Positions 2,018 to 47,058 are shown, counted from the first letter of the stretch. The stretch: 64,000 nt of DNA from Clostridia bacterium (GCA_018648645.1 JABGQS010000013.1:2994-66993), one strand, 5' to 3'. Program-made: numbers and translations. Notes: a model not told the origin generated them from the sequence alone.

Positions 2018-3499
2018 TTACAACTTGCCTTTTCGCACTTGCATCCAAAACGTAATCCCATCTGCTTGGTTTTGCACACCGTATCCGCTGCCATCAGCTT
2101 CTTGTATTGCTTTAACAATCGAAAGCCCAAGCCCATGTCCTCCAAGGTTGCGATCTCTCGATTGGTCAACCTTATAAAAGCTATCCCATAGCTTTGGCAA
2201 CTCCTCATCCGGAATGTGACTGCAAGTATTAAACACTTCAATTCGCACATTTTGGTCAGTTTGCGTCATGCGAATACTGATCGTTTTTTGATCATCAACA
2301 TACTTAATTGCGTTATTAACGTAATTGGACAAAACGATATCCACTTTCTGCTGATCTGCAATAACCATTGTTGGCTCTATGGGTTCAAAACTAAACTGAA
2401 TGGACTCTTGCTCAACTCTCTGCTGATACTTTTCTTTTAGACTCCTTATGAATGAAACAATTTCAAATTCAGCCGGATTGAGCACAACATCACCAAATCT
2501 AATTCTGTTGATATCCAGCAAATCGGTGATTAATCTATTCATTTTTTCTGTTTCATCTATAATCACATCGCAATAGTAATCAACCTTATCAAGGTCTTTG
2601 GCGACGTTCGACTTCAAACCGTCTGCATAACTTTGCATCAATGTCAAAGGCGTTTTTAGCTCGTGAGAAACATTGTTGAGCAATTGCTTTCTGTTTTCAT
2701 CTATCTTGATTTTTTCCTTGATTTGATTTTCAAGTTCATTGTTGCGAACATTCAGCGTTCCGATTGCATTCTTTAAGGCGTTTGAAAGAACGTTAATCTT
2801 TTGCGCCAACTGTCCCATTTCGTCTTTAGATTCAACAGGGCACGTTGTTTCAAAATTAAGGTTGCTCAATTCTGTTGCCACTTTGTTCATGGTTATGAGC
2901 GGTCGTGTGAATTTGTTTGAAAGTATGTAAGCGAAAAGCATTCCCGCAAACAACAAAATGATACCGACAATCGGTGCGAATCTGTTTGTGGATACAATAC
3001 TGATTTCCGGCGGGATCAACCTGACCCGAAGGATAACATGATCGCCGTTATTAAGATTACCGATGACGTTCAGCGTTCTGGCGTCAAGTATAGAATCGTT
3101 TGCCCAGAAAAAGCTGACATTGTCATTGATCACTTCCTCCTGTTCTACTTCAAAAAAGGAGGGCAAAGTCTCTGGGTATGTTGGCAGCACTCCAAGTGTT
3201 TCAAGTGCGTCGTTGCTTATTAAATACTCCTTGCTTTGATATTGAAGATCTCCTTGTGAGTCAAGTATAAATACATCAACATTAAAACCTTTATTATACT
3301 TTTCAAATTCCTTGTAGATGCCATCGTATTCTGAGCGCTCAAGTTCATTGATATACCGATATTGATTGAGCAGCTTGTTCTTCGCGACCGCCATATATAT
3401 CGGTTCAAACAAAAGAGAGTAAGCACTCATAAAAAGAACGATAAGCAAAACGATGAGTACACCTATTTGTAGAAACAGTTTAATTCTTATAGATTTCAT
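2018..3499 (-). CDS. Sensor histidine kinase (two TM segments, extracytoplasmic domain, HAMP, HisKA, HATPase_c)
   Basis: H-box NNVSHELKTPLT, N-box LSNYVNNAIKY, G-box GGHGLGLSIV. The ATG overlaps the upstream regulator stop (ATGA). Confidence 0.9.
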   Translation of the reverse strand: MKSIRIKLFLQIGVLIVLLIVLFMSAYSLLFEPIYMAVAKNKLLNQYRYINELERSEYDGIYKEFEKYNKGFNVDVFILDSQGDLQYQSKEYLISNDALETLGVLPTYPETLPSFFEVEQEEVINDNVSFFWANDSILDARTLNVIGNLNNGDHVILRVRLIPPEISIVSTNRFAPIVGIILLFAGMLFAYILSNKFTRPLITMNKVATELSNLNFETTCPVESKDEMGQLAQKINVLSNALKNAIGTLNVRNNELENQIKEKIKIDENRKQLLNNVSHELKTPLTLMQSYADGLKSNVAKDLDKVDYYCDVIIDETEKMNRLITDLLDINRIRFGDVVLNPAEFEIVSFIRSLKEKYQQRVEQESIQFSFEPIEPTMVIADQQKVDIVLSNYVNNAIKYVDDQKTISIRMTQTDQNVRIEVFNTCSHIPDEELPKLWDSFYKVDQSRDRNLGGHGLGLSIVKAIQEADGSGYGVQNQADGITFWMQVRKGKL

Positions 3500-4182
3500 T
3501 GCGTGTCCTCGCCGGCTTTAAATTTATACCCCGATTTTGGAACCGTTTTGATATATATGCTCGCCTTACTTAGTTTTGACCTAAGCCGGTTAATGGTTGT
3601 ATCAACGGTTCGGTCTGTACCATCATATTCGTAGCTCCAAATATTATCCAGCAGCCTCTCTCTGCTTAAAGCCACATTTTCGTGTTTGATCATATACATG
3701 AGCAGCTTAAGCTCAGTGCTGCTAAGCGTTATCGGAACATCGTCAACTGTCAAGCTTTGCTCTTTTACATAAATACGAAGGCTGCCGCGCTGTATGTAAT
3801 CCTTCTCGGGATTGCCGTACACTCGGGTATACAGCGCGTTCACTCTGGCAACCAAAATGCTTGCCTTAAACGGCTTTTTGATATACTCGTCCGCGCCTCG
3901 GCCAAACCCTGTCAGCTCGTCCGGTTCCTCGGTCTTTGCCGTAAGCATAATGATTGGCAGATCGCTGCGTTTTCTTATCTTGCTGCAGACCTCGAATCCG
4001 CTCATATACGGCATCATGACATCGAGGATAACTATTTTTATGGTTGGGTCGGACTCGAATATATCGAAAGCTTCTCGCCCGTCAGCTGCCTCGACAACTT
4101 CATATCCTTCCAGCGTCAGGAAATCAGAGATAACCGACCTGATTCTGCCTTCATCATCCGCAACCAATATCTTTTTGCACAT
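3496..4182 (-). CDS. OmpR-family response regulator
   Basis: Receiver domain KILVADDEG...ILDVMMP...LTAK, and a winged-helix C-terminus ...TVDTTINRLRSKL. I chose the internal ATG at 4182 because it follows GAGGTG; the listed ORF extends to 4242. Confidence 0.9.
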   Translation of the reverse strand: MCKKILVADDEGRIRSVISDFLTLEGYEVVEAADGREAFDIFESDPTIKIVILDVMMPYMSGFEVCSKIRKRSDLPIIMLTAKTEEPDELTGFGRGADEYIKKPFKASILVARVNALYTRVYGNPEKDYIQRGSLRIYVKEQSLTVDDVPITLSSTELKLLMYMIKHENVALSRERLLDNIWSYEYDGTDRTVDTTINRLRSKLSKASIYIKTVPKSGYKFKAGEDTQ

Positions 4183-4344
4183 CTCACACCTCTGTTTACA
4201 GACTAAGATATCCTTCTTTTTATCAATTATATCACAATACAAGTATTTTGTTACGGCTGTTATATTTTTGTGACAACTTTTTTATAAGCTATATCCATAA
4301 TCGATAAGATTAAATTTTGAGTCAGTAAATAAAGGGAGTAGAAA

Positions 4345-5730
4345 ATGAGAAATAAGAAAGAAAAGAAGAAGAAGTCAACTAGCCATATAGTATGGATAAT
4401 AGTAGCATGTGCACTATTTGTGTCAACTATTTGTATAGCTTTCTTCGCGTACATCGAGCCGAGATTACCCGGTGGGCCTCCACATTTTGATTTAGCCGAA
4501 GCTGAAAATAGACAACAATTATATGACAGACATGACGACTTTGAATTGTTGGATATTAATGATGATAATTATTTATCAGTAGATGAGTATTATGGCTTAC
4601 AAAAGATGTTCGATGATATGGATGTAAATGGTGATGGTTTGCTATCATGGGAAGAAGCCAAATATATGATGACATTTGTTGAAATTGAAGCAGGGACATT
4701 TACATTTGGAACAGACGAGGAATTTGCAGCATTCAAGGACCCGCCGGGAGATCAAGGTCCGGCCAGCGAGATTTATTTAGACACATATTTAATGGCTAAG
4801 ACAGAACTAACGATTGCACAATATGTGATGTATTTGAATTCTGCTTTAGAAGCCGGACAAATCGATGTTGTGTTGGGCGACATGATGATCGCAGATAAGA
4901 GATTTAACCGCGCCGTTCCTACATGGGAAATTCATGGTGCAGAGGGTACTACATATGAAGGAATGGTATTTACTAAACTTGTTCAAATGGGCGCGCTATC
5001 TCATAATGCGAATGAAGTGAGTGGAAAGCTGATTCCCGAGAGCCCGTATAATCAGTCGTGGATTAATTATCACGAACCAACAAACAGTTTTTATTCGGAC
5101 CCGGGCATGGAAGAAATGCCGGCTGCATATATGTATTGGTGGGGAGCAATGGCTTTTGCTGAGTACTACGAACTGTCAGTTCCGACAGAAGCAGAATGGG
5201 AAAAAGCTGCTAAAGGCGGTTTAGATTACGATTATGCGACAGTTGACGGTACTAATGCAGCCGACGTTTTGAACTACGGATGCTACAATGCACAGAATTC
5301 ACTATTCTATAGCGGTGTTGATACTCCGGAAGAATATGTTGGCTTCAGGCTGCCGGTTGGCTGCTATGAACCAAACCCATATGGCGTTTACGACATGTCG
5401 GGAAATGTTTGGGAATGGACGATGGATTGGTATAATACAGACTTTCATCAATACCTTATTGATGAAGGCATTACTAAAAATCCATTAAGCCTTGTTGGTG
5501 ATATAGGAATAGAGCCTACACAATACTTCATGGGCGACGAAGTTAAGGGAGGGCCATCGGTTCCGTTATCACATGATTCAATTGTAACAAGAGGCGGAAG
5601 TTATAACTATGGTGGTGGAGTGCAAAGAACCGAATGGAGAATGCCAACATACCAATTTATTGGAAACGACCATTTCGGAACAAGATTTGTTATACGGCCG
5701 GCTACAACAGAGTTTAACGAAAAAGAATAA
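4345..5730 (+). CDS. Membrane-anchored protein with two EF-hand Ca2+ loops and an FGE-sulfatase (SUMF1/formylglycine-generating-enzyme-like) domain
   Basis: AAGGGAG RBS. N-terminal Lys-rich stretch plus a TM helix. Canonical 12-residue loops DINDDNYLSVDE and DVNGDGLLSWEE. FGE-type motifs YGVYDMSGNVWEWTMDWY and RGGSYNY...HFGTRFV. Confidence 0.8.
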   Translation: MRNKKEKKKKSTSHIVWIIVACALFVSTICIAFFAYIEPRLPGGPPHFDLAEAENRQQLYDRHDDFELLDINDDNYLSVDEYYGLQKMFDDMDVNGDGLLSWEEAKYMMTFVEIEAGTFTFGTDEEFAAFKDPPGDQGPASEIYLDTYLMAKTELTIAQYVMYLNSALEAGQIDVVLGDMMIADKRFNRAVPTWEIHGAEGTTYEGMVFTKLVQMGALSHNANEVSGKLIPESPYNQSWINYHEPTNSFYSDPGMEEMPAAYMYWWGAMAFAEYYELSVPTEAEWEKAAKGGLDYDYATVDGTNAADVLNYGCYNAQNSLFYSGVDTPEEYVGFRLPVGCYEPNPYGVYDMSGNVWEWTMDWYNTDFHQYLIDEGITKNPLSLVGDIGIEPTQYFMGDEVKGGPSVPLSHDSIVTRGGSYNYGGGVQRTEWRMPTYQFIGNDHFGTRFVIRPATTEFNEKE

Positions 5731-7757: not shown

Positions 7758-8906
7758 ATGAACTATTTTTTAACTGAAGAACAGGAAATGATACAAGAAC
7801 TCGCCGCGAAAATCGCGGACGAGAAGATAACGCCGGTTGCCATTGAATATGATGAGAAGGGCACGTTCCCTCACGACATCATTAAAATATTAGCGGATAG
7901 CGACCTTTGCGGTGTGTATATCGAAGAGCAGTACGGCGGCCTTGGCGGCGGCATCATGGAAATGTCGCTGGTTGTAGAGCAGCTAAGCCGTGCGTGTGGC
8001 GGCATAGCGCTGGCGTTTGCCGGCACAGGTCTTGGCACATTCCCGATCATACTCTTTGGCAACGAAGAGCAGAAGAAAAAGTATCTCCCCGATATCGCAT
8101 CTGGCAAAAAGCTTGCAGCGTTTGGCTTGACCGAAGCTAACGCGGGCAGCGACGCAGCGGGTGTCGAAACCACAGCCGTTCTTGACGGAGACGAATACAT
8201 CCTTAACGGCACAAAAATGTGGATCACCAACGGTGGCGAGGCCGATATCTACTCGGTTATTGCGTGCACCGACAGAGAACTTGGACCAAGAGGCTTTTCC
8301 GCGTTTATCGTAGAGAAAGACACGCCCGGTTTCACGTTCGGCAAAAAAGAAGACAAAATGGGCATACGCGCTTCTGCCACGGTCGAGCTCGTGTTCGAGG
8401 ATTGCCGTATACCAAAAGAAAACCTGCTCGCGAACGAAGGCATGGGCTTTATCGTTGCTATGAAGACGCTCGACCGGACACGTCCGGGCGTTGCGGCGCA
8501 GGCACTGGGCATAGCGCAGGGCGCGCTTGACGCGGCAGCAAAGTACTCAAAGGAAAGAGAGCAGTTTGGCTCGACCATTTCCACCTTCCAGGCAGTTCAG
8601 CATATGTTGGCGGACATGGCAATACAAATCGAAGCGAGCAGAGCGCTCGTATACCAGACTTGCAGACACGTCGATTCGGGCGCAAAACGCATCTCCAAAG
8701 AGTCGGCGATGTGTAAGGTAATGGCGTCTGACACAGCAATGAAGGTCACAGTCGACGCAGTGCAGGTCATGGGCGGATACGGATACATGAAGGAGTTCCC
8801 TGTCGAGAAAATGATGCGTGACGCGAAGATTACGCAGATCTACGAAGGAACCAACCAGATACAGCGCAATATTATCGCACTTGAAGTGCTGAAAAAATAT
8901 CGCTAG
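7758..8906 (+). CDS. Acyl-CoA dehydrogenase (butyryl-CoA dehydrogenase / CarC-like)
   Basis: AAGGAG RBS. Motifs GLTEANAGSDA, MWITNGGEAD, and C-terminal QIYEGTNQIQR with the catalytic Glu region. Confidence 0.9.
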   Translation: MNYFLTEEQEMIQELAAKIADEKITPVAIEYDEKGTFPHDIIKILADSDLCGVYIEEQYGGLGGGIMEMSLVVEQLSRACGGIALAFAGTGLGTFPIILFGNEEQKKKYLPDIASGKKLAAFGLTEANAGSDAAGVETTAVLDGDEYILNGTKMWITNGGEADIYSVIACTDRELGPRGFSAFIVEKDTPGFTFGKKEDKMGIRASATVELVFEDCRIPKENLLANEGMGFIVAMKTLDRTRPGVAAQALGIAQGALDAAAKYSKEREQFGSTISTFQAVQHMLADMAIQIEASRALVYQTCRHVDSGAKRISKESAMCKVMASDTAMKVTVDAVQVMGGYGYMKEFPVEKMMRDAKITQIYEGTNQIQRNIIALEVLKKYR

Positions 8907-8992: not shown

Positions 8993-9787
8993 TTGAACAT
9001 TGTAGTATGTGTAAAGCAAGTACCCGGAACTAACGAAGTGAAAATGAACGAGGAAACCAATACCATCATCCGTGAAGGCATGGAGGCCATTATCAATCCT
9101 TTTGACACTTATGCCGTTGAAGAAGGCGTGCGTTTAAAGGAGCAGACGGATGGTAAGGTAACGGCGATAAGCATGGGAATTCCCTCTGTTGCCGACTTGT
9201 TAAAAGAGACGATCGGGCTTGGAGTGGACGAAGCTGTGCTGCTGAGCGATCGGACGTTTGCGGGTGCAGATTCGCTCGCGACCAGCTACGCTCTGGCTAA
9301 GGGTATCGAGAAGATTGGCGGCGTTGACCTCATTATCTGCGGCAAACAAGCAACGGACGGGGACACGGCGCAAGTCGGACCGAGCCTTGCAGAGAAGCTT
9401 GGTATCCCGCACACCACTTACGTGAAAAAGATTGAGGAAATCAGTGAGGGGTATATCCGCTGTGAGCGCATGACCGACGACGGGTACGAAGTGATCGAAA
9501 TGACGCTTCCCGCTGTCATCACTGTGGTCAAAGAGATCAACGAACCGCGGCTGCCCTCCATGAAAGGCATGATGCGCGCCAAAAAAGCGGTTGTGCAAGT
9601 ATGGACAGCGGACGATGTCGGCGCTGATAAAGCGCTTTGCGGTCTTGATGGATCGCCGACCCAGGTCGTCAAAACGTTCGTACCGGTGCACAACGTCAAC
9701 AGCGAAATGATCGAGGGCGAACCAAACGAGCAGGCAAAACGGCTTGCGGACGTGCTCATGTCGATGCAGTTTGAAACCGGCAATTAG
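8993..9787 (+). CDS. etfB: Electron transfer flavoprotein, beta subunit
   Basis: TTG start 8 nt after AAGGAG. N-terminus MNIVVCVKQVPG and DLIICGKQATDGDTAQVG. Confidence 0.9.
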   Translation: MNIVVCVKQVPGTNEVKMNEETNTIIREGMEAIINPFDTYAVEEGVRLKEQTDGKVTAISMGIPSVADLLKETIGLGVDEAVLLSDRTFAGADSLATSYALAKGIEKIGGVDLIICGKQATDGDTAQVGPSLAEKLGIPHTTYVKKIEEISEGYIRCERMTDDGYEVIEMTLPAVITVVKEINEPRLPSMKGMMRAKKAVVQVWTADDVGADKALCGLDGSPTQVVKTFVPVHNVNSEMIEGEPNEQAKRLADVLMSMQFETGN

Positions 9788-9802: not shown

Positions 9803-10996
9803 ATGGCTGAAATAAGAATTATTGAAGATAAATGTGTCGGGTGTAAGCTTTGCGTTCCGGCCTGCCCGTATGATGCAATCAAAGTCGAAAACAAGATGGC
9901 AGAGATACTGCCTAATTGTGTTCTGTGCGGCTTGTGTGTACCGGCGTGTAAATTTGACGCGATTGATTTAACAAAGGATGATGCGGATGAGAAGAGCGAT
10001 TTGGACTCGTACACAGGCGTGTGGGTATTCGGAGAGCAAAAGGGCGGCATACTTGCGGGCGTTGGGCTCGAGCTACTCGGCGAGGGCAGAAGGCTTGCTG
10101 ACGAGCTTGGCGAAGAACTATCTGCTGTGCTGATAGGAGAAAATGTAGGTGACGCTGCTAAGCAGATGGTTGCGGGCGGTGCTGATAACGTATACGTCGT
10201 AGACCACGAATCGCTTAAGCTTTTTAACGATGAGTCGTATGCGGACGTCTTCGTGCAGCTTATCCAAAAACACAAACCCGAGATAGTGCTGATGGGAGCC
10301 TCTACCTATGGGCGTTCGCTCGCACCGAGAATCAGCTCGCGCATCAACACGGGATTGACTGCGGACTGCACCAAGCTGGAGATTGATCCTGAAAAGAAGA
10401 TACTTATGCAAACTCGACCTGCTTTTGGCGGCAACCTGATGGCAACGATCATCTGCCCGAACCATCGGCCGCAGATGTCAACCGTGCGACCAAAAGTCAT
10501 GAAACCGCTCGAGCCTGATTTCTCCAGGACGGGCAACATCGTTGCAGAGGATGTAACAATCCCGCAAAACCTTAGCGTCAAAGTTGTTGATGTCGTTTCT
10601 GAATTAACAGAAACGGTTAACTTGACCGAAGCTGATATAATAGTGTCGGGAGGCAGAGGCCTTGGTGACCCGAAGAACTTTGAGCTTCTTCACGAGCTTG
10701 CTATGCTGCTCGGCGGTGCCGTTGGATCTTCGCGTGCGGCGGTTGACGCAGAATGGATTTCGTACAGCCATCAAGTAGGACAAACGGGCAAAACCGTTGG
10801 ACCCAAAGTGTACTTTGCCTGCGGTATATCCGGTGCAATACAGCACCTTGCAGGCATGTCGTCATCCGACACCATCATCGCAATCAACAAAAACCCGGAC
10901 GCGCCTATCTTTAAGATAGCAACGTTCGGTATTGTCGGCGATGTATTGCAAGTCGTGCCAGAGCTAATCAAAGAGTTCAAAGCGCGACTGGGTTAA
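9803..10996 (+). CDS. etfA: Electron transfer flavoprotein, alpha subunit, with an N-terminal 2x[4Fe-4S] ferredoxin domain (CarE-like)
   Basis: GGAGGA RBS. CVGCKLCVPACP and CVLCGLCVPACK lie in the first ~55 aa. The C-terminal FAD site is PKVYFACGISGAIQHLAGM. Confidence 0.9.
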   Translation: MAEIRIIEDKCVGCKLCVPACPYDAIKVENKMAEILPNCVLCGLCVPACKFDAIDLTKDDADEKSDLDSYTGVWVFGEQKGGILAGVGLELLGEGRRLADELGEELSAVLIGENVGDAAKQMVAGGADNVYVVDHESLKLFNDESYADVFVQLIQKHKPEIVLMGASTYGRSLAPRISSRINTGLTADCTKLEIDPEKKILMQTRPAFGGNLMATIICPNHRPQMSTVRPKVMKPLEPDFSRTGNIVAEDVTIPQNLSVKVVDVVSELTETVNLTEADIIVSGGRGLGDPKNFELLHELAMLLGGAVGSSRAAVDAEWISYSHQVGQTGKTVGPKVYFACGISGAIQHLAGMSSSDTIIAINKNPDAPIFKIATFGIVGDVLQVVPELIKEFKARLG

Positions 10997-11010
10997 ACTT
11001 GAGTTAAACG

Positions 11011-11039
11011 GGCAGCGGAGCAAATCTGCTGCCTTTTTT
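11011..11039 (+). terminator. Rho-independent terminator of the acd-etfBA operon
   Basis: GGCAGCGGAGCAAATCTGCTGCC followed by TTTTTTG. Confidence 0.8.
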
Positions 11040-11163
11040 GTTGTCATTTTTTCGGAGTTTTATCGTGGTTCTGGTGTGGTTTGCCGTAACTAGTTAAAAA
11101 ATGTGCCCCAAAGAGGGCGTTTCTTTCAAATGAACACCTCGCGACATCTTGTCTGGGGCTTTC

Positions 11164-12831
11164 TTATGCCCTCTCCAGCGCAAACAACGCTGCGCCAATC
11201 GCGCCGCAAAGCTGCGCGTGCTCGCAGATATAAAGATTCGTCTCCAGTTTATCCTCCAGCGCTTTCACAACGCCGCGATTTTTGGCAACACCGCCGGTCA
11301 TTATGTAACCTTCCTGCGGCGAAACGCGATTCACCAGCCCGCCCACTTTGGATGCGACAGAGCTGTTCAGCCCATGCACAATATCCTCCAGCGCTTTGTT
11401 TTGCGCAACAAGCGAAACCACCTCTGACTCGGCGAATACGGTGCACATGCTGGAAATGGTAATGTCCTCTTCCCAATCAAGCCCGATCTCGCTAATCTGC
11501 TCCAGCGTAAGCCCAAGCGCTCTTGCCATCATCTCCAAAAATCGCCCTGTTCCGGCAGCGCATTTGTCGTTCATCACAAAGTTTTGGACCGCGCCTGTCT
11601 CGTCAATTCGGATGACCTTGCTGTCCTGTCCACCAATGTCGATTACGGTACGCGCCTGCGCAGAGAGAAAATGCGCGCCTGCCGCATGACAGGTAATCTC
11701 TGTTACGCTGTCGTCGCCGTCGGCAATATAATCGCGGCCATAGCCGGTCTTAACGATGACGCGAATGTCACTTCGAGACAGCGCTGCTTTGCTTAGCGCG
11801 TCGCTCAGCGCTTGCTCAGCGCTGTTGTTTGCGCCGCCGCCTGTCGGAGCGATTACGGTAGAGATGATATTCTCCGCAGTATCCATAATGACCACGTCGG
11901 TGCTGGCAGAGCCGCTGTCAATCCCCGCGACATAGCTTGTATTTGCAGGTGTCGGCACTTTTGCGACAACTTGGTTTGTATCAGCAGCGCCGGATAGTGT
12001 TTCCGCAAAGGCTTGTATTCGAGTTCTCAGCTGACCTTCGCTTTGGCGTGTATAATCGGTTTCCAGCTTCAAAATAGGAAGCGTGGTATCGCGCTTAAAA
12101 CCCACATATTCGAATTCATAGTAATCGCAGAACTTAATTGAGTGGTAAATGATTCCCTTCAAGTTCTTATCATCGAACAACTTGCACCGAATCTCTGGCA
12201 TCCCCATTCGCCCGCAAGGGAACTGGCTCAGCAGCGCGACGGCATAGGCGGTAAACATGTCTTCTTCAGACATATCGGCCATGGCCTTCGTGTCACAAGT
12301 AAACTCGCGGTTGCTCACGCAAGTGAGATTCCTTACGGGCAAGGGCATGAGGGAGCTAATCGTCTCCTCCAGCTGTTTGCCGACACGCACTCCTAAAATC
12401 CCCACATACGGCTCGCTCTCACTCGGCGCTGTCGGGGCAAAAGCATTTAGGAACGCTTCCTTATCAAAGGGTATGCCGGAGCTAGCTGCGTATTCGTTTT
12501 TTAAGCGTAGCAGTCTTTTCCCAAGCTCCTGCGCGGCACTATCGCTGTTTTGGTGGGGCAGATCAAGCATAAACAAAAAATCGCAGGCCTTCGTATCATC
12601 GATGACGTCATAAGCTCTGTTCATGGTGTCGCAGCAGTTGATCAAAATGAGCTCCTGCGTATCCTCGCTAAGAGTAGACTCCATCAGCGCCTTGCCAAAA
12701 CCACACAAATTAATGTGAGAAGCGCGTTCGGAAACCTCGAAGTTATCAGCCACTTCATCCAGCAGCGAGCACTCCTGAGAAAACCCGCTGAACAGCTCAA
12801 CCGGGGTATATTTGCACACATATTTTATCAT
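11164..12831 (-). CDS. Fusion protein: 2-hydroxyacyl-CoA-dehydratase-family (HGD-D) subunit plus a C-terminal BcrAD/BadFG-type ATP-dependent activase
   Basis: The N-terminal ~290 aa (MIKYVCKYTPVELF...CDYY) are HgdB-like. The C-terminal ~260 aa have an acetate/sugar-kinase fold (YVAGIDSGSASTDVVIMD, VIDIGGQDSK, NDKCAAGTGRFLE, MTGGVAKN). Its ATG overlaps the upstream stop (TAATG). Confidence 0.85.
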   Translation of the reverse strand: MIKYVCKYTPVELFSGFSQECSLLDEVADNFEVSERASHINLCGFGKALMESTLSEDTQELILINCCDTMNRAYDVIDDTKACDFLFMLDLPHQNSDSAAQELGKRLLRLKNEYAASSGIPFDKEAFLNAFAPTAPSESEPYVGILGVRVGKQLEETISSLMPLPVRNLTCVSNREFTCDTKAMADMSEEDMFTAYAVALLSQFPCGRMGMPEIRCKLFDDKNLKGIIYHSIKFCDYYEFEYVGFKRDTTLPILKLETDYTRQSEGQLRTRIQAFAETLSGAADTNQVVAKVPTPANTSYVAGIDSGSASTDVVIMDTAENIISTVIAPTGGGANNSAEQALSDALSKAALSRSDIRVIVKTGYGRDYIADGDDSVTEITCHAAGAHFLSAQARTVIDIGGQDSKVIRIDETGAVQNFVMNDKCAAGTGRFLEMMARALGLTLEQISEIGLDWEEDITISSMCTVFAESEVVSLVAQNKALEDIVHGLNSSVASKVGGLVNRVSPQEGYIMTGGVAKNRGVVKALEDKLETNLYICEHAQLCGAIGAALFALERA

Positions 12832-14102
12832 TATCGTCTGTCCTCCAACATCTCAAGATATGCTCCAAAGCGGGTAGCCATTTGACCGTCGCTACAGTTG
12901 GCAGGGTCTCCACCGTCGCCGTCAAGTATCAGCGTCGGATAACCCGCTTCCTCAAAGTCGCGCTTAAACAGCGCGGATGCGCCGAGCGTTCCCTTGCAGC
13001 CCCAGTGTGCGAACACGACAATGCCATCAGCCTTTGTCTGCTCTGCGACCTGCTGCGCGCGCTGTGCACGCAATTTATAGTCGCCGTTGTAGCACGAATA
13101 CACCATGCGATGAGCCATCGCTTCATACGGGTTCGTGGGATCGATGTGCATCATGCTGTCATAAACAAGGTCGCAGGCAACAATCCTGGCTCTGTCGGTA
13201 AAGCTCAGATACTTGTTTGCCGAGGGTTGCAAGAAAGGAATCATGTGCAGCCAAACAAGACGAATGGCGTCATTGCCCTTCGCTTTCTTAATGTCAGAGA
13301 GCATGCGACGAGCGTACGTTTCCGCTTTTTTTGTGCCCATCATAATGTGACCTGTGAATACCGCGTAAAGCTCGCTTGCGATATCGCTTTTCATGGCGTG
13401 GTCTGCTTGATATTTTAAGTGTTCCAAGTAATATTCGCTGGTGCGGTGACTTCTCTGCATGGCTTCTTGCAGCATATTGTCGGTAATTTTTTTGCCGGAA
13501 ACATCGGAAATAAACGTGACCATTTCCCTTAGCTGCCCGGCAACGTGCTGCACGGCGTCTTCGCTGCGCTCGTATGGAACCTCGACAAAGAAGCTCGGGA
13601 TCTTGAAGCGATTGATTAGATACGGAAAGCTGGTCATGTTGGCATCGCAAGCAAGATTCGTGTAGATAAGCATTTTTGGATTGGGCACGACGCCGCTGCC
13701 CATTGCCCCATGAAATATCCTATGGAAGGAGCACAGCGTTTTTGACGCGCCGTCCTCTTCCGCAGCGTCCAGGAACACCTGCTCTGCGTGAACACCACCC
13801 AGAAACCCCGAAAGCGCTTCAACAGAAAAAGGCGTAATCCCGGCGACGTTCAAAGGCTCGCTCGGAATGAAAATACTTACCATCGCGGATTTTTCCGGCG
13901 AGGATAGCGCATCGACCATCGTGGCAGTAATTTGCCTCGAGGCATAGCGATGACTAGGCGAGACTTTGCTGCTTGGAAGGACAGAGCCGGCCTGCTGAAT
14001 GCGACACGCGTTAATCAGTATTTTGCGCGCTTTGACCGGATCTTCCAATACAGCTTTCTGTATAAGTTGTCCAAACTTTTCTACTTGCTCTTCTCTATCC
14101 AT
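12831..14102 (-). CDS. 2-hydroxyacyl-CoA-dehydratase-family (HGD-D) large subunit; the double-cubane-cluster-protein family is an alternative
   Basis: AGGAG RBS. 423 aa with the family-typical C-terminus ...GIVVFAHWGCKGTLGASALFK. Translationally coupled to the fusion gene. Confidence 0.75.
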   Translation of the reverse strand: MDREEQVEKFGQLIQKAVLEDPVKARKILINACRIQQAGSVLPSSKVSPSHRYASRQITATMVDALSSPEKSAMVSIFIPSEPLNVAGITPFSVEALSGFLGGVHAEQVFLDAAEEDGASKTLCSFHRIFHGAMGSGVVPNPKMLIYTNLACDANMTSFPYLINRFKIPSFFVEVPYERSEDAVQHVAGQLREMVTFISDVSGKKITDNMLQEAMQRSHRTSEYYLEHLKYQADHAMKSDIASELYAVFTGHIMMGTKKAETYARRMLSDIKKAKGNDAIRLVWLHMIPFLQPSANKYLSFTDRARIVACDLVYDSMMHIDPTNPYEAMAHRMVYSCYNGDYKLRAQRAQQVAEQTKADGIVVFAHWGCKGTLGASALFKRDFEEAGYPTLILDGDGGDPANCSDGQMATRFGAYLEMLEDRR

Positions 14103-14665
14103 AACTGCTACTCCTATTATTCAAATGTGGTTTTGTACAGCTCTTTTTTGCAAGGTCGTTGCCGCTTCATTCGTCAAATAAAATATAAGCACAAATAATT
14201 CAAGCTCTCGATAGAAGAAAAAATGAGATACCCAAACAATTGAACCAACATTAACATAGCGTCCGCAATAGTGCAGCGTTCGCGTTAGTGTCTTGGTTGA
14301 CAATGCACAATATTTACTTTTTGTAGGGAAAGCAAGTTATAAATATAACAGTAATTAATAATAGCGTTTGCAGACTTGCACTTCCCCGTAAAACTTCCTT
14401 AATAGAACAAATTAATATACTTCATAATATCAAAAAAGAATAATATGTGCAAGGCAACAAATGCAAATATGAGTAATTGCAAACTAGATGTATCGTAAAA
14501 AAAGGCAGCTCGAAGGACAAAAAGGCGGTTGCATTAGGTGCAAACTCTCCACCATGAGACACCATTTACATGAACGCCATACAATTAATATGATGTTTAC
14601 CCTATCGTATTTAAGTTGATTCAGACATTATTCAATTTCGTGCATTGAAAGGTAAGCCGGGCTTA

Positions 14666-14694
14666 TTGACGAGCAAACATGATATGTATATAAT
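14666..14694 (+). promoter_or_regulatory. Sigma-70-type promoter for the Zn-ADH operon
   Basis: TTGACG, 17 nt, TATAAT. Implies a ~175-nt leader before ATG 14876. Confidence 0.55.
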
Positions 14695-14804
14695 ATATTC
14701 GGGTCACAAGCCATTTATTAATATGTACAACGAAACGGGGATTTCCCATCCGAAGAGGATTCTTGAAGCAATTGAAAAGCCGTACGATATGAAAACGGAT
14801 CAAG

Positions 14805-14832
14805 GCATGCACAAACCAAAGTATGTGTATGC
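14805..14832 (+). promoter_or_regulatory. Leader stem-loop followed by an A/T-rich tract (possible attenuator)
   Basis: GCATGCACA and TGTGTATGC form 9 bp with one G-U and a 10-nt loop, followed by TTAAATTATATTTTAAAT. Confidence 0.3.
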
Positions 14833-14875
14833 TTAAATTATATTTTAAATAAGCTTGGAGAAGAGGGTAGTTGAA

Positions 14876-15934
14876 ATGAGCAAAACAATGAAGGCGATAC
14901 GGATGTATGCGCCGAGAGATTTAAGGCTGGAGCAAGTGCCTGTGCCGCAGATACGGAAAGATGAAGTGCTGATCAAAGTGATGGCGGTGGGTATCTGTGG
15001 AAGCGACATTCCTCGCATCAACGAGCTGGGCGCATACATTTCGCCCATTACGCCCGGTCACGAGTTTGCCGGCGAAATTGTGCAAGTCGGCAGCGACATC
15101 AAGAATTTCAAAGCGGGCGATAGAGTAACCGTACCGCCGATATTGCCGTGCTTCCGGTGCGAGTATTGCGAGCAGGGGCATTACGCATTGTGCAAAGACT
15201 ACAAGTATTACGGGTCGCGCAACGACGGAGCGTTTGCGCAGTATTTGGCTGTGCCCGAGCCTAATCTATTAAAGATTGCCGACAACGTGACATATGAAGC
15301 GGCAGCAACAACCGACCCGCTTGCAAATGCTTTGCACGGTGTAAAGCGCAGCGGATTCAAACCGGGCGACAGCGCCTGCGTGGTAGGCTGCGGTGCTATC
15401 GGATTGTTTGCGTTGCAGTACATGAAAGCGAAGGGTGCAACAACTGTAGTTGCAGTCGACGTGAACGACAAGAAGCTCGAATCCGCCAAAAACTGCGGTG
15501 CAGACGTTGCGATAAACGGGCTTGACGACGATGTTGTTGAGCAGATAGCGGCGGCGACAGACGGCGGAGCGGACGTTGTAATCGACGCGTCAGGCTTTCC
15601 AATCGCACAGCACAACGCCATCATGGCGACAGCAAAGCACGGCACAACGGTGCTGCTCGGCATTTCGCACAAGCCGCTGGAGCTCTCGGAGAAGTGCGTA
15701 GACCAGCTCATGCGCGGCGAACAAGCGGTTGTCGGTTCGTGGAACTCGTTCAGCAGTCCTTTCCCCGGCTGGGAGTGGACGCACGGTGTAGAGTGCTTGG
15801 CAGACGGCACTATTGACGCAGAGAAAGTCATCACGCACAAGTTGCCGTTGGCGGATGTGCCGGACATATTCGACAAGATATACAAGAAGGAAATTTTCTT
15901 CAACAAGATATTGTTTCTGCCGTGGGTGGACTAA
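14876..15934 (+). CDS. Zn-dependent medium-chain alcohol/polyol dehydrogenase (sorbitol / galactitol-1-P dehydrogenase-like)
   Basis: Zn motifs GICGSDIPR and GHEFAGEIV, structural-Zn Cys cluster CFRCEYCEQGHYALC, Rossmann VVGCGAIGL. Confidence 0.85.
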   Translation: MSKTMKAIRMYAPRDLRLEQVPVPQIRKDEVLIKVMAVGICGSDIPRINELGAYISPITPGHEFAGEIVQVGSDIKNFKAGDRVTVPPILPCFRCEYCEQGHYALCKDYKYYGSRNDGAFAQYLAVPEPNLLKIADNVTYEAAATTDPLANALHGVKRSGFKPGDSACVVGCGAIGLFALQYMKAKGATTVVAVDVNDKKLESAKNCGADVAINGLDDDVVEQIAAATDGGADVVIDASGFPIAQHNAIMATAKHGTTVLLGISHKPLELSEKCVDQLMRGEQAVVGSWNSFSSPFPGWEWTHGVECLADGTIDAEKVITHKLPLADVPDIFDKIYKKEIFFNKILFLPWVD

Positions 15935-15935
15935 T

Positions 15936-16967
15936 ATGAAAGCATTTGTGTATCACGGCGAGACGAGCTTTAGCATGGACGAGGTAGCTGCGCCAACAGC
16001 GGGCAAAGGCGAGGCGGTGGCAAAGATACTGGCTGCGTCAATATGCGGCACGGATCTGCGAACATTCCGTTTTGGCAGCGCCAAGCTAGCTGCGCCGATT
16101 ACGGTTGGACATGAAGCGTGCTACGAGATTACGCAGGTCGGCAACGGCGTTGATCTGGAAGTGGGCGGACGGTATATCATAGCTCCGGCGATTGGCTGCG
16201 GTGGGTGCAAAAGCTGCAAAAAGGGACGCACCAACATGTGCGATACTTTGCAGACGATTGGGTTTCAATACCCGGGAACGTTTGCGGAGTACATCAAAAT
16301 ACCTGCAAAAGCGATTAACGGCGGGTATCTCATCAAAGTGCCGGACAGCGTTTCGGACAAAGCGGCGAGTGTGGTCGAGCCTGTCGCGTGTGCGATAAAT
16401 GCACAGAGCTTTTTGAACATCGAGCAGGGTGACAACGTCGTGATATACGGCGCGGGATACCTTGGGTGCATTCACGCCGAGCTCGCGATGATGCAGGGCG
16501 CAAGCGAAGTCATTATAGCAGAGATTTCCGAAAATCGCCGCAGCAAGGCGAAGCAGCTCGTGCCAAGTGCGCTGATTGTGGACTCGGGCAAACAGGGGTA
16601 TATGGACGAGATTAGAGACATCGTTGGCGACATGGGCGTTGACGTTGTAATCACGGCGTGCCCGGCCGGAATCACTCATAAGCAAGGTCTTGAGCTGTTG
16701 TACAAAAACGGGCGGATTAGCCTTTTCGGCGGGCTGCCGGGCGAGGACAACTATCATCTCGACAGCAACTTGATACATTACAAAGAGCTTGGCGTTTTTG
16801 GCGCACATGCCGGCACAGTAGCACAGAACAAGCAGGCGCTGGAGGCTGTGGAAAGCGGCAAGCTTGATGTGGCGAAGTATATAAGCGCGTTTGCGCTTGG
16901 TGACATAGAGAAAGCGTTTGCAGCGCTGATTGATGAGACTGCCGAGAAAGCGGTTGTTATTCCGTAA
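15936..16967 (+). CDS. Second Zn-dependent medium-chain dehydrogenase
   Basis: ATG lies 1 nt after the upstream stop; the listed ORF 15813 is an out-of-context extension. Motifs SICGTDLR, GHEACYEI, CGGCKSCKKGRTNMC, GAGYLG. Confidence 0.85.
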   Translation: MKAFVYHGETSFSMDEVAAPTAGKGEAVAKILAASICGTDLRTFRFGSAKLAAPITVGHEACYEITQVGNGVDLEVGGRYIIAPAIGCGGCKSCKKGRTNMCDTLQTIGFQYPGTFAEYIKIPAKAINGGYLIKVPDSVSDKAASVVEPVACAINAQSFLNIEQGDNVVIYGAGYLGCIHAELAMMQGASEVIIAEISENRRSKAKQLVPSALIVDSGKQGYMDEIRDIVGDMGVDVVITACPAGITHKQGLELLYKNGRISLFGGLPGEDNYHLDSNLIHYKELGVFGAHAGTVAQNKQALEAVESGKLDVAKYISAFALGDIEKAFAALIDETAEKAVVIP

Positions 16968-17013: not shown

Positions 17014-17973
17014 CTAAACTTTTTTGTCGCTTTCTCTGATATTTGTGATTGATTCGTGCGTATTGGTCAGATATTTCTTTGTTTTATCGAAATTTCGCGA
17101 TGCATACATAGCATATAGAACATCAATCACGAGCAGCTGCGATATTTTCGATGTGGTGTTTTCCCACTTGTTTTCCTTTAAAGTATTGATTACGCTGTTG
17201 GATGACAAAAGTGTAATATCTGATATCTTTGCCAAAGGTGAGGAGGGGAAGGCTGTAATTCCGATGGTCCTGATTCCATTGTTCCGCGCGTGACGTATGC
17301 TGTCCAAGACGGTTTTGGAAGTGCCGGAGTTGCTGATGCCGATTACGACATCGTTCTTATTGAGAATGGATGACGAGATTAGCTGAACGTATCCGTCTCT
17401 CGGGAAAACGCACTTTACGCCGGCTCTGGTAAAGCGCATGATTGCCTCTTCTGCAGCAATGGCCGATGAGCCGATACCAGAAAAGACGATGTTTTCTGCC
17501 TGCTCAATTGTTTCTACACCCAGTAAATATTGCTTCGGATCTGCAAGCAGCATTGTTTCGTTAAGCATATTGATATTTCGATATATTAATTTGTCGAAAA
17601 TCATATTCAAATCATCTGTCTTAGATATGTCCTCGTATATATAATCCTGAACTTCTGCAGAGCCGGTACCTTTAGCGTCCTTGAAAGTTTCGGCGATTCT
17701 TATCTTTAGCTGTGGATAATTCGTTAAGCCAATTTCCCTTACAAATCGCGTCACTGTGGATTCGGACACGTCGCAGGCGCTGCTGAGTTGCTTGATTGTC
17801 AAAGATTTGCATTGATTGGGATTCGTGATTATGAAATCAGCGATTTTCTGCAGGGCAGGATTAAGCCCCGACATCCGCCGCTTTATAACGGTAATAACAT
17901 CCGGTTCGGTTGCGACCGCTCTTGAATAATCCTCAAGTATTCTATCGTTATTGACTTCATTCCTACTGTTCAC
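17014..17973 (-). CDS. RpiR-family transcriptional regulator (HTH_6 + SIS domain)
   Basis: GTG start 4 nt after GGAGGTG. HTH region LSSACDVSESTVTRFVREIG. SIS motif GIGSSAIAAEE...GISNSGTSK. Confidence 0.85.
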   Translation of the reverse strand: MNSRNEVNNDRILEDYSRAVATEPDVITVIKRRMSGLNPALQKIADFIITNPNQCKSLTIKQLSSACDVSESTVTRFVREIGLTNYPQLKIRIAETFKDAKGTGSAEVQDYIYEDISKTDDLNMIFDKLIYRNINMLNETMLLADPKQYLLGVETIEQAENIVFSGIGSSAIAAEEAIMRFTRAGVKCVFPRDGYVQLISSSILNKNDVVIGISNSGTSKTVLDSIRHARNNGIRTIGITAFPSSPLAKISDITLLSSNSVINTLKENKWENTTSKISQLLVIDVLYAMYASRNFDKTKKYLTNTHESITNIRESDKKV

Positions 17974-18115: not shown

Positions 18116-18144
18116 TTGACAAAAATAAATATTATATGTATCAT
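18116..18144 (+). promoter_or_regulatory. Sigma-70-type promoter for the split transketolase genes
   Basis: TTGACA, 17 nt, TATCAT. Confidence 0.5.
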
Positions 18145-18210
18145 GGGTATATAGAAGACAGTGGCGTGAACTTTGCACGTACCTCAAATAATTGTTTTAG
18201 GGAGAATGGT

Positions 18211-19044
18211 ATGAAAAGACGAAATGACCTGGAGAAGTTTTGTATTAAGATTCGGATTGAGACACTAAAGCAAATTGGCAACTTGGGATTTGGTCATGTG
18301 GGCGGGTGCATGTCTATCGCAGAAACACTTGCTGTCTTGTACGGCGGCGTGATGAAAACTGACAGTGCGAATCCTAAATGGGAGCAAAGAGACTGGCTGG
18401 TAATCTCGAAGGGGCATGCAGGACCTGCCATATATTCGACTTTGGCGTTGAGAGGGTTTTTCGATATGTCGCTGCTAAAAACGCTAAACAGGGGCGGAAC
18501 CTCGCTGCCGAGCCATTGTGATAAGAACAAAACAATTGGTATTGATGTGACAACAGGGTCACTTGGGCAGGGGATATCTCAGGCGATTGGTATTGCATTG
18601 GGGCATAAGCTGAAGAAGATGGATAATTGGGTGTATTTGATACTTGGTGACGGAGAGCTGCAGGAGGGTCAAGTTTGGGAAGGCGCGATGTTTGCGCCGC
18701 ATCACAATTTGGATAATTTGATTGCGTTTGTAGATAACAATAAGCAGCAGCTGGATGGGTTTACGCAGGATATTTTGAATGTGGAAAGTATTCATAAAAA
18801 GTTTGAGGCGTTTAATTGGCATGTGCAGTCGATTGATGGTCACGATGTAATCGCAATCGAAGAAGCTGTGGAATGTGCAAAGAAAGCGGCAGGCAAGCCA
18901 TCGGTTATTATACTGGAAACGCAAAAGGGCAAGTGTTGCACATACACAGAAGGGGTGCTGGATAATCATCATATCAGTGTATGCGAGCAGGACACAAAGC
19001 GCGCGGTAGCAAAGCTGGAAGCGCAGCTGGCCAAATACGAATAG
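18211..19044 (+). CDS. Transketolase, N-terminal (TPP-binding) subunit
   Basis: GGGAGAA RBS, then ATG 18211. Motifs GHVGGCMSIAE, SKGHAGPAIY, GDGELQEGQVWE. Confidence 0.9.
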   Translation: MKRRNDLEKFCIKIRIETLKQIGNLGFGHVGGCMSIAETLAVLYGGVMKTDSANPKWEQRDWLVISKGHAGPAIYSTLALRGFFDMSLLKTLNRGGTSLPSHCDKNKTIGIDVTTGSLGQGISQAIGIALGHKLKKMDNWVYLILGDGELQEGQVWEGAMFAPHHNLDNLIAFVDNNKQQLDGFTQDILNVESIHKKFEAFNWHVQSIDGHDVIAIEEAVECAKKAAGKPSVIILETQKGKCCTYTEGVLDNHHISVCEQDTKRAVAKLEAQLAKYE

Positions 19045-19055
19045 GGGAGGCAGTG

Positions 19056-20018
19056 ATGAATATAAAATTGGCGGAGAATAGATTATTGGAAGAGACGAGC
19101 TTGGCAGATGCCTACTTGGATACGCTGCTGGAGCTGGCGCGCAGTGACGAGAGCGTCATGTCCTTAGAAGCGGATTTGATGAAATCGATTGGTGTGAAGT
19201 TTATTGAGAAGTTTCCTAAAAGAACGATTAACTGTGGCATTGCTGAGGCGAATATGGTAGGCGTTGCGACCGGTCTTGGAGCGGTAGGAATGAAAGCGTA
19301 TACACATACGTTTGCGCCGTTTTTAACCAGAAGAGCGTATGACCAGATATTTATAACGACAGCGTACGGGAAGGGGAACGTGAAGCTGATAGGCAGCGAC
19401 CCCGGAATAACTGCGGCGTATAACGGCGGAACGCATATGCCGTTTGAAGATGCAGGATTATTGAGGATGGTACCGGACGCAATCGTAATTGACATCTCGG
19501 ATTCGACAATGCTCAAATGCGTGTTAAAAGATATAAAGGATATTTTCGGTGTGCAATATGTGCGAATGCCGCGATGTGCGGTAGACAAAATTTATGCGTG
19601 TGATAGTGTGTTTGATATCGGTAAGGGGATTGTGCTTAAAGACGGGACCGATGCAACGATTATTGCTTCCGGGATTCTGGTGAGCGAGGCGCTTGATGCA
19701 GCGCACCAGCTGGAGCAGGAGGGAATCAGCGCAAGAGTTGTCGATATGTTTACTTGGAAACCGATAGATAAGGATTTGATAGTTAAGTGCGCAAAGGAAA
19801 CGGGTGCGATTGTGACAGCAGAGAACCACAACATAGTTAACGGTCTCGGCTCGGCCGTTGCAGAAGTGTTGGGAGAGAACAGCCCGGTAATCATGAGCAG
19901 GATAGGCTGTAAGGATAGGTTTGGAGAGGTTGGCTCGAAAGAATATTTGATGGACGAGTTTGAGATGACGGCAGATGATATTGCTAAGCAAGTGAAGGTA
20001 GTCTTGAATCAGAAGTGA
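19056..20018 (+). CDS. Transketolase, C-terminal (pyrimidine-binding) subunit
   Basis: GGGGAGG RBS, then ATG 19056. Motifs CGIAEANMVGVATG and THTFAPF. Confidence 0.9.
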   Translation: MNIKLAENRLLEETSLADAYLDTLLELARSDESVMSLEADLMKSIGVKFIEKFPKRTINCGIAEANMVGVATGLGAVGMKAYTHTFAPFLTRRAYDQIFITTAYGKGNVKLIGSDPGITAAYNGGTHMPFEDAGLLRMVPDAIVIDISDSTMLKCVLKDIKDIFGVQYVRMPRCAVDKIYACDSVFDIGKGIVLKDGTDATIIASGILVSEALDAAHQLEQEGISARVVDMFTWKPIDKDLIVKCAKETGAIVTAENHNIVNGLGSAVAEVLGENSPVIMSRIGCKDRFGEVGSKEYLMDEFEMTADDIAKQVKVVLNQK

Positions 20019-33515: not shown

Positions 33516-33526
33516 AGATCCCTCAT

Positions 33527-47048: not shown

Positions 47049-47058
47049 GAGAGCCGAT

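Follow-up and report, generated by a model that had tools for sequence, protein, structure and literature searches.

The question raised by this locus is which reaction is carried out by a two-gene unit in which one subunit of the benzoyl-coenzyme A (CoA) reductase/2-hydroxyacyl-CoA dehydratase (BCR/HAD) superfamily is fused to an ATPase. The unit is located in a 64,000-nucleotide stretch of DNA from a Clostridia bacterium (GCA_018648645.1, JABGQS010000013.1:2994-66993; the window) and consists of two open reading frames (ORFs), designated ORF A and ORF B (Table 1). The initial annotation, made from the sequence of the window, described a pair of translationally coupled genes and offered two functions for them: a compact radical dehydratase delivering its product to a neighboring enoyl-CoA reductase, or an ATP-driven low-potential reductase resembling the double-cubane-cluster protein (DCCP). 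According to our analysis, ORF A/B is a real, widespread, and uncharacterized two-gene enzyme and a new architectural variant within the known superfamily. In its working it is closest to class I benzoyl-CoA reductase (BCR) of the Bzd/Mbd type, of which it is not a member. With moderate confidence, we consider it an autonomous ATP-driven low-potential reductase, similar to BzdNO and equipped with a fused ATPase.

The coupled gene pair was confirmed: both ORFs lie on the minus strand exactly where the initial annotation had placed them. Direct reading of the sequence gave the junction as ...CGA TAATG ATA..., with a one-base overlap of the two ORFs and GGAGGA ten bases 5' of the ORF B start codon. 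ORF A is, as annotated, an HGD-D protein of 423 amino acids (aa), and it matched the Pfam model over its full length (PF06050; E-value 7e-60, profile positions 2-342 of 342). The motifs GIDSGSASTD, DIGGQDSK, and KCAAGTGRF noted earlier in ORF B are all present (residues 303-312, 398-405, and 423-431, respectively). The product of the second gene had been described as an HgdB-like domain of about 290 aa followed by a complete activase; the fusion stands, and the "HgdB-like" part is more precisely a shortened domain of about 280 aa with a double-cubane cysteine pattern. With two paralogous HGD-D subunits and an ASKHA ATPase containing two cluster cysteines, the pair belongs to the BCR/HAD superfamily.

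The fusion is the genuine and normal state of this family. Both PF01869 and PF06050 were found in 120 of 120 ORF B homologs among the matches listed (53-100% identity), most of which were 549-587 aa long, and the length of the fused gene product was 547-613 aa in most loci. A pattern scan with one genome per species revealed that a relative is encoded in 557 of 185,579 species. The carriers are mainly Lachnospiraceae (Blautia, Dorea, Roseburia, Agathobacter, and Lachnospira), Oscillospiraceae, and Christensenellaceae, followed by Eggerthellaceae/Coriobacteriaceae, Desulfosporosinus, and Peptococcaceae. Some clusters formed at 90% identity contain thousands of metagenomic members (10,778 in P0080). 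The closest relative is a Christensenellaceae metagenome-assembled genome (MAG), in which the ORF B domain is 73% and ORF A 85% identical. By an exhaustive HMMER search with the HGD domain of ORF B alone, the family is small: 80 clusters (50% identity) were retrieved at E<1e-30 and 395 at E<1e-10. Among 40 representatives with a complete domain and identities of no more than 50%, 34-37 were fused: 28 had a complete ATPase, 6 a truncated or frameshifted ATPase, 3 other tails, and 3 ended soon after the domain. Most of the shorter database relatives that seemed "unfused" proved to be fusions with a frameshift or truncation. Searching plasmids with the ORF B domain returned nothing. The initial annotation had warned that the fusion might be an assembly or frameshift artifact, and the ORFs could in principle have arisen by chance; nothing was found to support this apart from a few database relatives with an obvious frameshift or truncation. 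Hundreds of independent assemblies and isolates, those of Blautia, Dorea, Roseburia, and Desulfosporosinus among them, share this fused architecture and length, which rules out an assembly artifact. The domain E-values range from 1e-30 to 1e-77, and we regard the chance of an artifactual or accidental origin as negligible. The existence of fusions is already known: archerase fusions in the superfamily have been reported, and in the InterPro family most of the long members consist of a catalytic subunit fused to an archerase (PMC7317905). Apart from this remark, no characterized fused family was found in the literature, and the ORF A/B family is uncharacterized.

Among 31 homologs of ORF A, down to 43% identity, the only invariant cysteines were C124, C152, and C369. 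C309, C336, and C402, considered as possible remnants of a distal cluster, varied among the homologs and were dropped. The best sequence matches in the PDB were BzdO (1.9e-13) and HadB (1.3e-9). In the HMMER alignment, C124 corresponded to BzdO C95 and C369 to BzdO C380, with C152 positioned at the C128/C129 pair of BzdO. In BzdO, C95, C128, and C380 bind the catalytic [4Fe-4S]-OH2 cluster, and the coordination in HadB is the same (PMC11971306). The cysteine pattern of ORF A is likewise that of a dehydratase alpha subunit with a three-cysteine [4Fe-4S] site. By spacing, invariant S76 and E95 fit BzdO Ser44 and Glu65, and invariant Asn155, three residues past C152, is placed at BzdO His131, where the local alignment is ambiguous by one residue. 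The AlphaFold2 model of ORF A had a predicted local distance difference test (pLDDT) score of 91.8, and its top fold matches were BzdO (8s02_A, E-value 1.5e-17), HadB (3o3o_A, E-value 4e-17), and MbdO, with template modeling (TM) scores of 0.75-0.83. Superposition with HadB gave TM scores of 0.78/0.83 and put the root-mean-square deviation at 2.9. ORF A retains the N-terminal arm and the helical domain, which form the CoA channel in BzdO and HadB.

The N-terminal domain of ORF B matched PF06050 with an E-value of 1.4e-30, and the best stretch (residues 166-279) corresponded to the C-terminal part of the profile. According to hhalign and the structural model, this domain differs from the known subunits in having no N-terminal helix and little of the helical middle domain; it is approximately 90 residues shorter than BzdN. 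Seven of its cysteines (C6, C43, C66, C67, C171, C206, and C235) were invariant among 26 homologs, and all seven, together with R208, were kept in 40 of 40 divergent representatives (mutual identity ≤50%). In a profile comparison with solved structures, DCCP (7YYL/6ENO) scored best (7e-16), followed by HadC (2e-9) and BzdN (6e-6), and the fold ranking of the N-terminal half of the ORF B model was similar, with DCCP in the first place and then HadC, BzdN, and MbdN. The ligands of the [8Fe-9S] cluster of BzdN are C36, C73, C100, C263, C293, and C327, and this cluster is thought to store at least two electrons (PMC11971306). Judged by alignment and spacing, C6, C43, C66/C67, C171, C206, and C235 of ORF B correspond to them in this order. 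The spacing C6-X36-C43-X22/23-C66/67 compares with C36-X36-C73-X26-C100 in BzdN, and the C171-x3-R175 spacing equals that of the reported C263/Arg267 of BzdN and is found in DCCP too. The domain thus covers all six double-cubane positions and does not have the single-cubane, three-cysteine site of dehydratase beta subunits. In dehydratases, both double cubanes have been lost, and HadC, a BzdN-like subunit, holds only a [4Fe-5S] remnant (PMC11971306). This cysteine pattern makes an [8Fe-9S] double cubane the most likely cluster of the ORF B HGD domain.

Alignment of the ORF A and ORF B profiles by hhalign paired C124 of ORF A with C43 of ORF B, C152 with C67, and C369 with C235, and at the position of ORF B C6, ORF A had the invariant Ser76. 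Of the six-cysteine site, ORF A therefore retains no more than the "proximal" half. None of the ligands considered in the initial annotation is absent, as they are invariant in both ORFs, and the two subunits differ in what they resemble: ORF B has the six double-cubane positions, as DCCP does, while ORF A has a three-cysteine site of the HadB/BzdO type. At the sequence level, this is the three-cysteine plus six-cysteine heterodimer of class I BCR; the cysteine patterns of the two ORFs therefore follow the cofactor pattern of BzdNO and not that of HadBC.

The C-terminal half of ORF B is a complete ATPase. It matched BcrAD_BadFG (PF01869; E-value 6e-59, residues 303-551) and TIGR00241, "acyl-CoA dehydratase activase" (E-value 8.7e-77; 258 bits compared to a cut-off of 125). 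The ATP motifs GIDSGSASTD, DIGGQDSK, and TGGVAKN and both cluster cysteines were invariant; the latter, C424 and C463, align with C127 and C166 of HgdC. Sequence matches of this domain in the PDB were HadI (7e-69), MbdQ (2.5e-64), HgdC (6e-58), and the DCCP reductase DCCP-R (5e-39), and by fold it matched MbdQ (TM score 0.90), HadI, HgdC, and DCCP-R with TM scores up to 0.91. The linker between the two halves showed no conservation in the alignment and contained insertions (P0029 is about 55 aa longer than the others). In the model of ORF B (pLDDT 77.8), residues 282-295 were disordered, with pLDDT below 50. No second ATPase gene adjoins the pair.

The genomic context was surveyed in 77 loci with a called fused gene, using our own ORF calling and all-against-all BLAST clustering. 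Wherever ORF A was called, its homolog was located directly upstream of ORF B on the same strand (62 of 62 loci); the overlap of the two genes was 4 bp in 44 of these loci and 1 bp in 3. ORF A was the sole conserved neighbor. No other neighbor family occurred in more than 11 of the 77 loci, and the recurrent ones (GH51 arabinofuranosidase, aldo-keto reductase, and ThiM) reflect lineage synteny. In 92 proteins encoded beside the pair at 30 dereplicated loci, 102 Pfam families were matched, none of them more than twice, and no CoA-transferase, 2-hydroxyacid dehydrogenase, acyl-CoA dehydrogenase, or electron transfer flavoprotein (ETF) was among the 25 Pfam families listed; precomputed Pfam annotation of six long contigs agreed in showing no conserved neighbors. 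In the window itself, the pair is convergent with an operon of an acyl-CoA dehydrogenase (Acd) and the two ETF subunits, and neither a CoA-transferase nor a 2-hydroxyacid dehydrogenase gene adjoins it, both as the initial annotation had it. Its suggestion that a dehydratase here feeds the neighboring enoyl-CoA reductase fared differently. The Acd, EtfB, and EtfA of the window had no BLAST match at E<1e-10 in the 76 other fused-gene loci, not even at the closest relatives L004 and L001, in which ORF A is 82-85% identical. In addition, a consensus scan of the 167-bp spacer between the Etf operon and ORF B found one terminator-like hairpin for each unit. Since there are no conserved neighbors, the pair is an autonomous bicistronic module, and its adjacency to the Etf operon is incidental. 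In one Lachnospiraceae-type contig, L084, genes for a radical SAM/BATS protein and for a Nitro_FeMo-Co (NifX/NafY-like) plus FKBP protein (3437-5351, plus strand) precede the pair on the same strand. This arrangement was seen in L084 only, and these upstream genes might be cluster-maturation helpers.

Among the characterized systems, class I BCR (BzdNO with BzdPQ; PDB 8S02 and 9GAI) is likewise a heterodimer of two HGD-D paralogs, with the three-cysteine [4Fe-4S] site of BzdO matched by ORF A and the six ligands of BzdN matched by ORF B. It also shares the ASKHA ATPase with a bridging [4Fe-4S] cluster; against MbdQ, the ATPase of ORF B scored 220 bits, with 44% identity in the structural alignment. 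Class I BCR differs from ORF A/B in having a separate two-subunit ATPase, BzdPQ or BcrAD, whereas ORF B carries one fused domain on the double-cubane subunit. Further differences are the shortening of the HGD domain of ORF B, the apparent replacement of BzdO His131 by Asn in ORF A, and the scores with the Bzd equivalog models, which are about ten-fold below the cut-offs (BzdO, 52 vs. 449; BzdN, 24 vs. 454). The context differs as well: no aromatic-degradation genes were found near the pair or in the surveyed loci, and the hosts are gut fermenters.

We infer the cluster types, the oligomeric state, the electron path, and the preference for a reductase over a dehydratase as follows. ORF A would be the substrate-binding subunit, with one iron of its three-cysteine [4Fe-4S] cluster free for water or a substrate carbonyl. 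The shortened partner domain of ORF B would carry the [8Fe-9S] double cubane as an electron store, and the ATPase would be joined to it via the flexible linker. Since each ATPase domain, like those of HgdC, HadI, and DCCP-R, has only two cluster cysteines, two ORF B chains would have to pair, with the ATPase domains dimerizing around a single [4Fe-4S] cluster, and the enzyme is probably an (alpha-beta)2 oligomer. Reduced ferredoxin or flavodoxin would load the [4Fe-4S] cluster of the ATPase, ATP binding and hydrolysis would push the electron to the [8Fe-9S] cluster of ORF B, and from the double cubane it would pass to the [4Fe-4S] cluster of ORF A and on to a carbonyl or thioester substrate. 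By analogy, these features speak for a net reduction, at the expense of ATP, of a carbonyl or thioester compound that is difficult to reduce, and not for the redox-neutral dehydration of a 2-hydroxyacyl-CoA. A net reductase is favored because a multi-electron store, lost in dehydratases, is present, and because the ATPase is fused one-to-one, comparable to BCR, which uses one ATP per electron, and to PlsA and Ger, net reductases in which ATPase fusions are functional. In dehydratases, catalytic amounts of a separate activator suffice.

Several observations weigh against this assignment. With Asn155 placed by spacing at BzdO His131, the predicted active site of ORF A would not be BCR-like in detail, and by its modeled fold ORF A is no more distant from the dehydratase subunit HadB than from BzdO. 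The assignment of an [8Fe-9S] cluster to ORF B rests on cysteine conservation and alignment, and a fused activator alone would not exclude a dehydratase. Finally, the surveyed contexts yielded neither a candidate substrate nor a CoA ligase or transferase.

ORF A/B could instead be a compact 2-hydroxyacyl-CoA dehydratase with a built-in activator, the enoyl-CoA product of which is reduced by the neighboring Acd and EtfBA; we consider this unlikely. The known dehydratases (HadBC with HadI, HgdAB with HgdC, FldBC with FldI, and LcdAB with LcdC) belong to the same superfamily and follow the same logic of an alpha-beta pair with an activator. The likeness of ORF A to HadB in fold, as high as that to BzdO, fits this proposal, and the ATPase of ORF B is 42% identical to both HadI and HgdC in structural alignment and has the same cluster cysteines. 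The best model scores of Acd, EtfB, and EtfA were those of the acryloyl-CoA reductase subunits AcrC, AcrB, and AcrA, an enzyme that acts downstream of lactoyl-CoA dehydratase in the acrylate pathway; all three scores were below the curated cut-offs and provide no independent support for an acrylate-type route. Against a dehydratase stand three defining features that ORF A/B lacks: the cluster site typical of the beta subunit, an activator that is a protein of its own, and the accompanying genes of the operon. Dehydratase beta subunits have three cluster cysteines and are without the three "distal" ones that complete the six of ORF B; the activator is a separate protein in the characterized dehydratases, as the initial annotation correctly stated, whereas in ORF B it is fused one-to-one; and CoA-transferase, 2-hydroxyacid dehydrogenase, and Acd/Etf are not conserved near ORF A/B. 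The absence of Acd/Etf from all 76 other loci and the separate hairpins of the convergent units leave the proposed coupling to enoyl-CoA reduction unsupported, and the scores with the HadB and HadC models (53 bits vs. a cut-off of 750, and 35 vs. 700) are far below those expected of members.

The second proposal of the initial annotation, an ATP-driven reductase of the DCCP type, was borne out on two points: ORF B has the six double-cubane positions, and among solved proteins DCCP is nearest to its HGD domain in sequence as well as in fold. It failed with respect to the subunit composition, as ORF B pairs with a three-cysteine catalytic subunit. In its strict form, in which catalysis on small molecules would take place at the ORF B double cubane and ORF A would serve as an accessory protein or electron relay, we find it improbable. 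DCCP with its ATPase partner reduces acetylene, azide, and hydrazine (PMC7317905, PMC9351452), an archerase-type ATPase drives reduction with ATP in both systems, and the loss of the N-terminal helix and middle domain could expose the cluster of ORF B more. As compared to DCCP/DCCP-R (CHY_0487/0488 of C. hydrogenoformans, YjiM/YjiL of E. coli; NF040772), ORF B keeps all six ligand positions and lacks the seventh, non-ligand motif cysteine, as in "class III" (PMC7317905). However, DCCP is a homodimer of one 380-420-aa protein with a separate reductase, whereas the 280-aa domain of ORF B is continuous with the ATPase and has as its partner an obligate, strictly co-conserved, full-length three-cysteine paralog, which itself lacks the distal three cysteines and keeps the parts from which the CoA channel of BzdO and HadB is built. 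In BzdNO, the only solved heterodimer of such make-up, the double cubane is the relay and the three-cysteine cluster is catalytic (PMC11971306). The NF040772 model gave only 63 bits for ORF B and 43 bits for ORF A at a cut-off of 350. Still less probable, and in our opinion very unlikely, is an alternative form of the plasmalogen or ether-lipid synthases PlsA/PlsR and Ger, i.e., a lipid ester reductase. These enzymes are likewise BCR/HAD-family proteins with fused ATPases that work as self-sufficient one- or two-gene units in anaerobes and catalyze net reductions; PlsAR in particular is a stand-alone two-gene system, has no partner genes dedicated to it, and is found in the same anaerobe groups. 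PlsA and Ger, however, contain two tandem BcrAD_BadFG domains and DUF2229 (PF09989), whereas ORF B has one ATPase C-terminal to HGD-D, DUF2229 is missing from the pair, and the catalytic parts have no detectable similarity. A 1335-aa PlsA/Ger-type protein with two BcrAD_BadFG domains and DUF2229 is encoded in an Eggerthellaceae MAG (L081, 3590-7597, minus strand), 2.4 kb upstream of the pair and divergent from it, with a gene for a LysR regulator in between. Similarity to this protein was confined to the ATPase domain (26-29% identity), ORF A gave no significant match to it (best E-value 0.63), and the presence of both systems in one genome means that they are not mutual substitutes. The identity with the plasmalogen synthase PlsA/PlsR was rejected on the basis of architecture and the lack of similarity beyond the ATPase domain.

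If ORF A/B is a BzdNO-like reductase, as we prefer, the reaction may be new to the superfamily. We put forward only tentatively that it is an ATP-driven two-electron reduction of a common metabolite at very low potential, catalyzed by an (alpha-beta)2 enzyme that is self-sufficient and uses a double cubane as its electron store, and not 2-hydroxyacyl-CoA dehydration, arene dearomatization, or lipid ester reduction. As the pair is prevalent in Blautia, Dorea, Roseburia, Agathobacter, Oscillospiraceae, and Eggerthellaceae, the human gut microbiota would then have a widespread activity that has been overlooked, and the double-cubane cluster would gain its second defined physiological role. The one role defined to date is that in BzdNO; the ORF A/B family would be the third architectural setting of this cluster. 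With two genes in about 2.9 kb, the module is small and self-contained and should be easy to express, and its frequency in cultivable gut commensals makes it experimentally accessible. For enzyme discovery in gut anaerobes, its architecture and predicted double cubane are attractive targets. The current annotations "2-hydroxyacyl-CoA dehydratase" and "acyl-CoA dehydratase activase" need correction, as they invite wrong calls of acrylate or Stickland pathways in gut metagenomes, and the pair could also confuse Pfam-domain screens for "plasmalogen-positive" organisms.

Table 1. Coordinates of the ORF A/B pair, its predicted sites, and the adjoining features, counted from the first nucleotide of the window.
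Feature	Position	Strand	Description
ORF A	12831-14102	minus	423 aa, alpha-type (catalytic) HGD-D subunit
ORF A C124	13731-13733	minus	invariant cysteine, codon checked
ORF A C152	13647-13649	minus	invariant cysteine, codon checked
ORF A C369	12996-12998	minus	invariant cysteine, codon checked
Translational-coupling junction	12829-12846	minus	GGAGGA 12846-12841, ORF A TAA 12833-12831, ORF B ATG 12831-12829
ORF B	11164-12831	minus	555 aa, short HGD-D domain, linker, and BcrAD/BadFG ATPase
ORF B residues 1-280	11992-12831	minus	compact beta-type HGD-D domain, predicted [8Fe-9S] site
ORF B C6	12814-12816	minus	aligns with DCCP "fCvyvP" and BzdN C36
ORF B C43	12703-12705	minus	aligns with DCCP "nlCpl"
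ORF B C66/C67	12631-12636	minus	C67 aligns with DCCP "ttCdg"
ORF B C171	12319-12321	minus	aligns with DCCP "etCiGeR"
ORF B C206	12214-12216	minus	aligns with DCCP "caCft"
ORF B C235	12127-12129	minus	aligns with DCCP "qfCqpyg" and BzdN C327
ORF B residues 281-300	11932-11991	minus	poorly conserved linker of variable length
ORF B residues 301-555 and stop	11164-11931	minus	complete archerase-type ASKHA ATPase
ORF B C424	11560-11562	minus	predicted ligand of the bridging [4Fe-4S] cluster
ORF B C463	11443-11445	minus	predicted ligand of the bridging [4Fe-4S] cluster
ORF B terminator-like hairpin	11105-11118	minus	GCCCTCTTTGGGGC followed by a T-rich tail, 3' of the ORF B stop; consensus scan
Etf operon hairpin	11010-11034	plus	with T-run; stronger than the ORF B hairpin
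Acyl-CoA dehydrogenase (Acd)	7758-8906		convergent with the pair
EtfB	8993-9787		convergent with the pair
EtfA	9803-10996	plus	convergent with the pair
ORF A ribosome-binding site	14115-14111		AGGAG, in the upstream gap
Divergent intergenic region	14103-14854		752 bp, between ORF A and a Zn-dependent alcohol/polyol dehydrogenase gene

The AT-rich region of 750 bp noted upstream of the pair in the initial annotation proved to be a gap of 752 bp with a GC content of 35%, compared to 52% in ORF A and ORF B. Between positions 10900 and 14900, 15 promoter-like sites were found against 4.8 expected, the majority within this gap. No Rfam match to a riboswitch or leader RNA was obtained in it at E-values up to 1. 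A conserved block, GGGAAnnGCAAGTCT separated by about 30 nt from ACTTGCTTTyCCT, is situated at approximately 14290-14400 (minus strand), 230-300 nt 5' of ORF A, and forms an interrupted inverted repeat, possibly an operator or a leader hairpin. Only L001 (8467-8511) and L004 (8477-8525), the two closest, Christensenellaceae-like relatives, have it as well, and it is missing in 81 other loci. As it is confined to these two relatives, the repeat is uninformative on a ligand.

On the other side of the pair, the N-terminus of EtfA (residues ~4-53) is a Fer4 ferredoxin domain with two [4Fe-4S] clusters, an arrangement that we take to resemble CarE of caffeyl-CoA reductase. Divergent from the pair are genes for tandem Zn-dependent polyol/threonine-type dehydrogenases (14855-15934 and 15813-16967, both plus strand; the ORF calls overlap by ~120 bp), followed by an RpiR/SIS regulator (17014-17973, minus strand) and a split transketolase, the N- and C-terminal halves of which are encoded by separate genes (18136-20018, plus strand). 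Together, these look like a sugar or polyol utilization cluster unrelated to the pair. Elsewhere in the window, a 461-aa protein (4345-5730, plus strand) shows an unusual pairing of an EF-hand with an FGE-sulfatase (formylglycine-generating enzyme-like) domain. A fused trehalose-6-phosphate synthase/phosphatase of 745 aa (GT20 and Trehalose_PPase; 33527-35764, minus strand) adjoins a GH65 phosphorylase gene (31236-33587, minus strand; the ORF calls overlap by ~60 bp). The genes at 45552-49752 (plus strand) encode a NuoF-like flavoprotein and then a molybdopterin oxidoreductase of 897 aa, the N-terminus of which is of the NuoG type (2Fe-2S and 4Fe-4S domains); together they look like an NAD-linked formate dehydrogenase, and a gene for the hydrogenase maturation protein HypF is located at 57454-59727 (plus strand).

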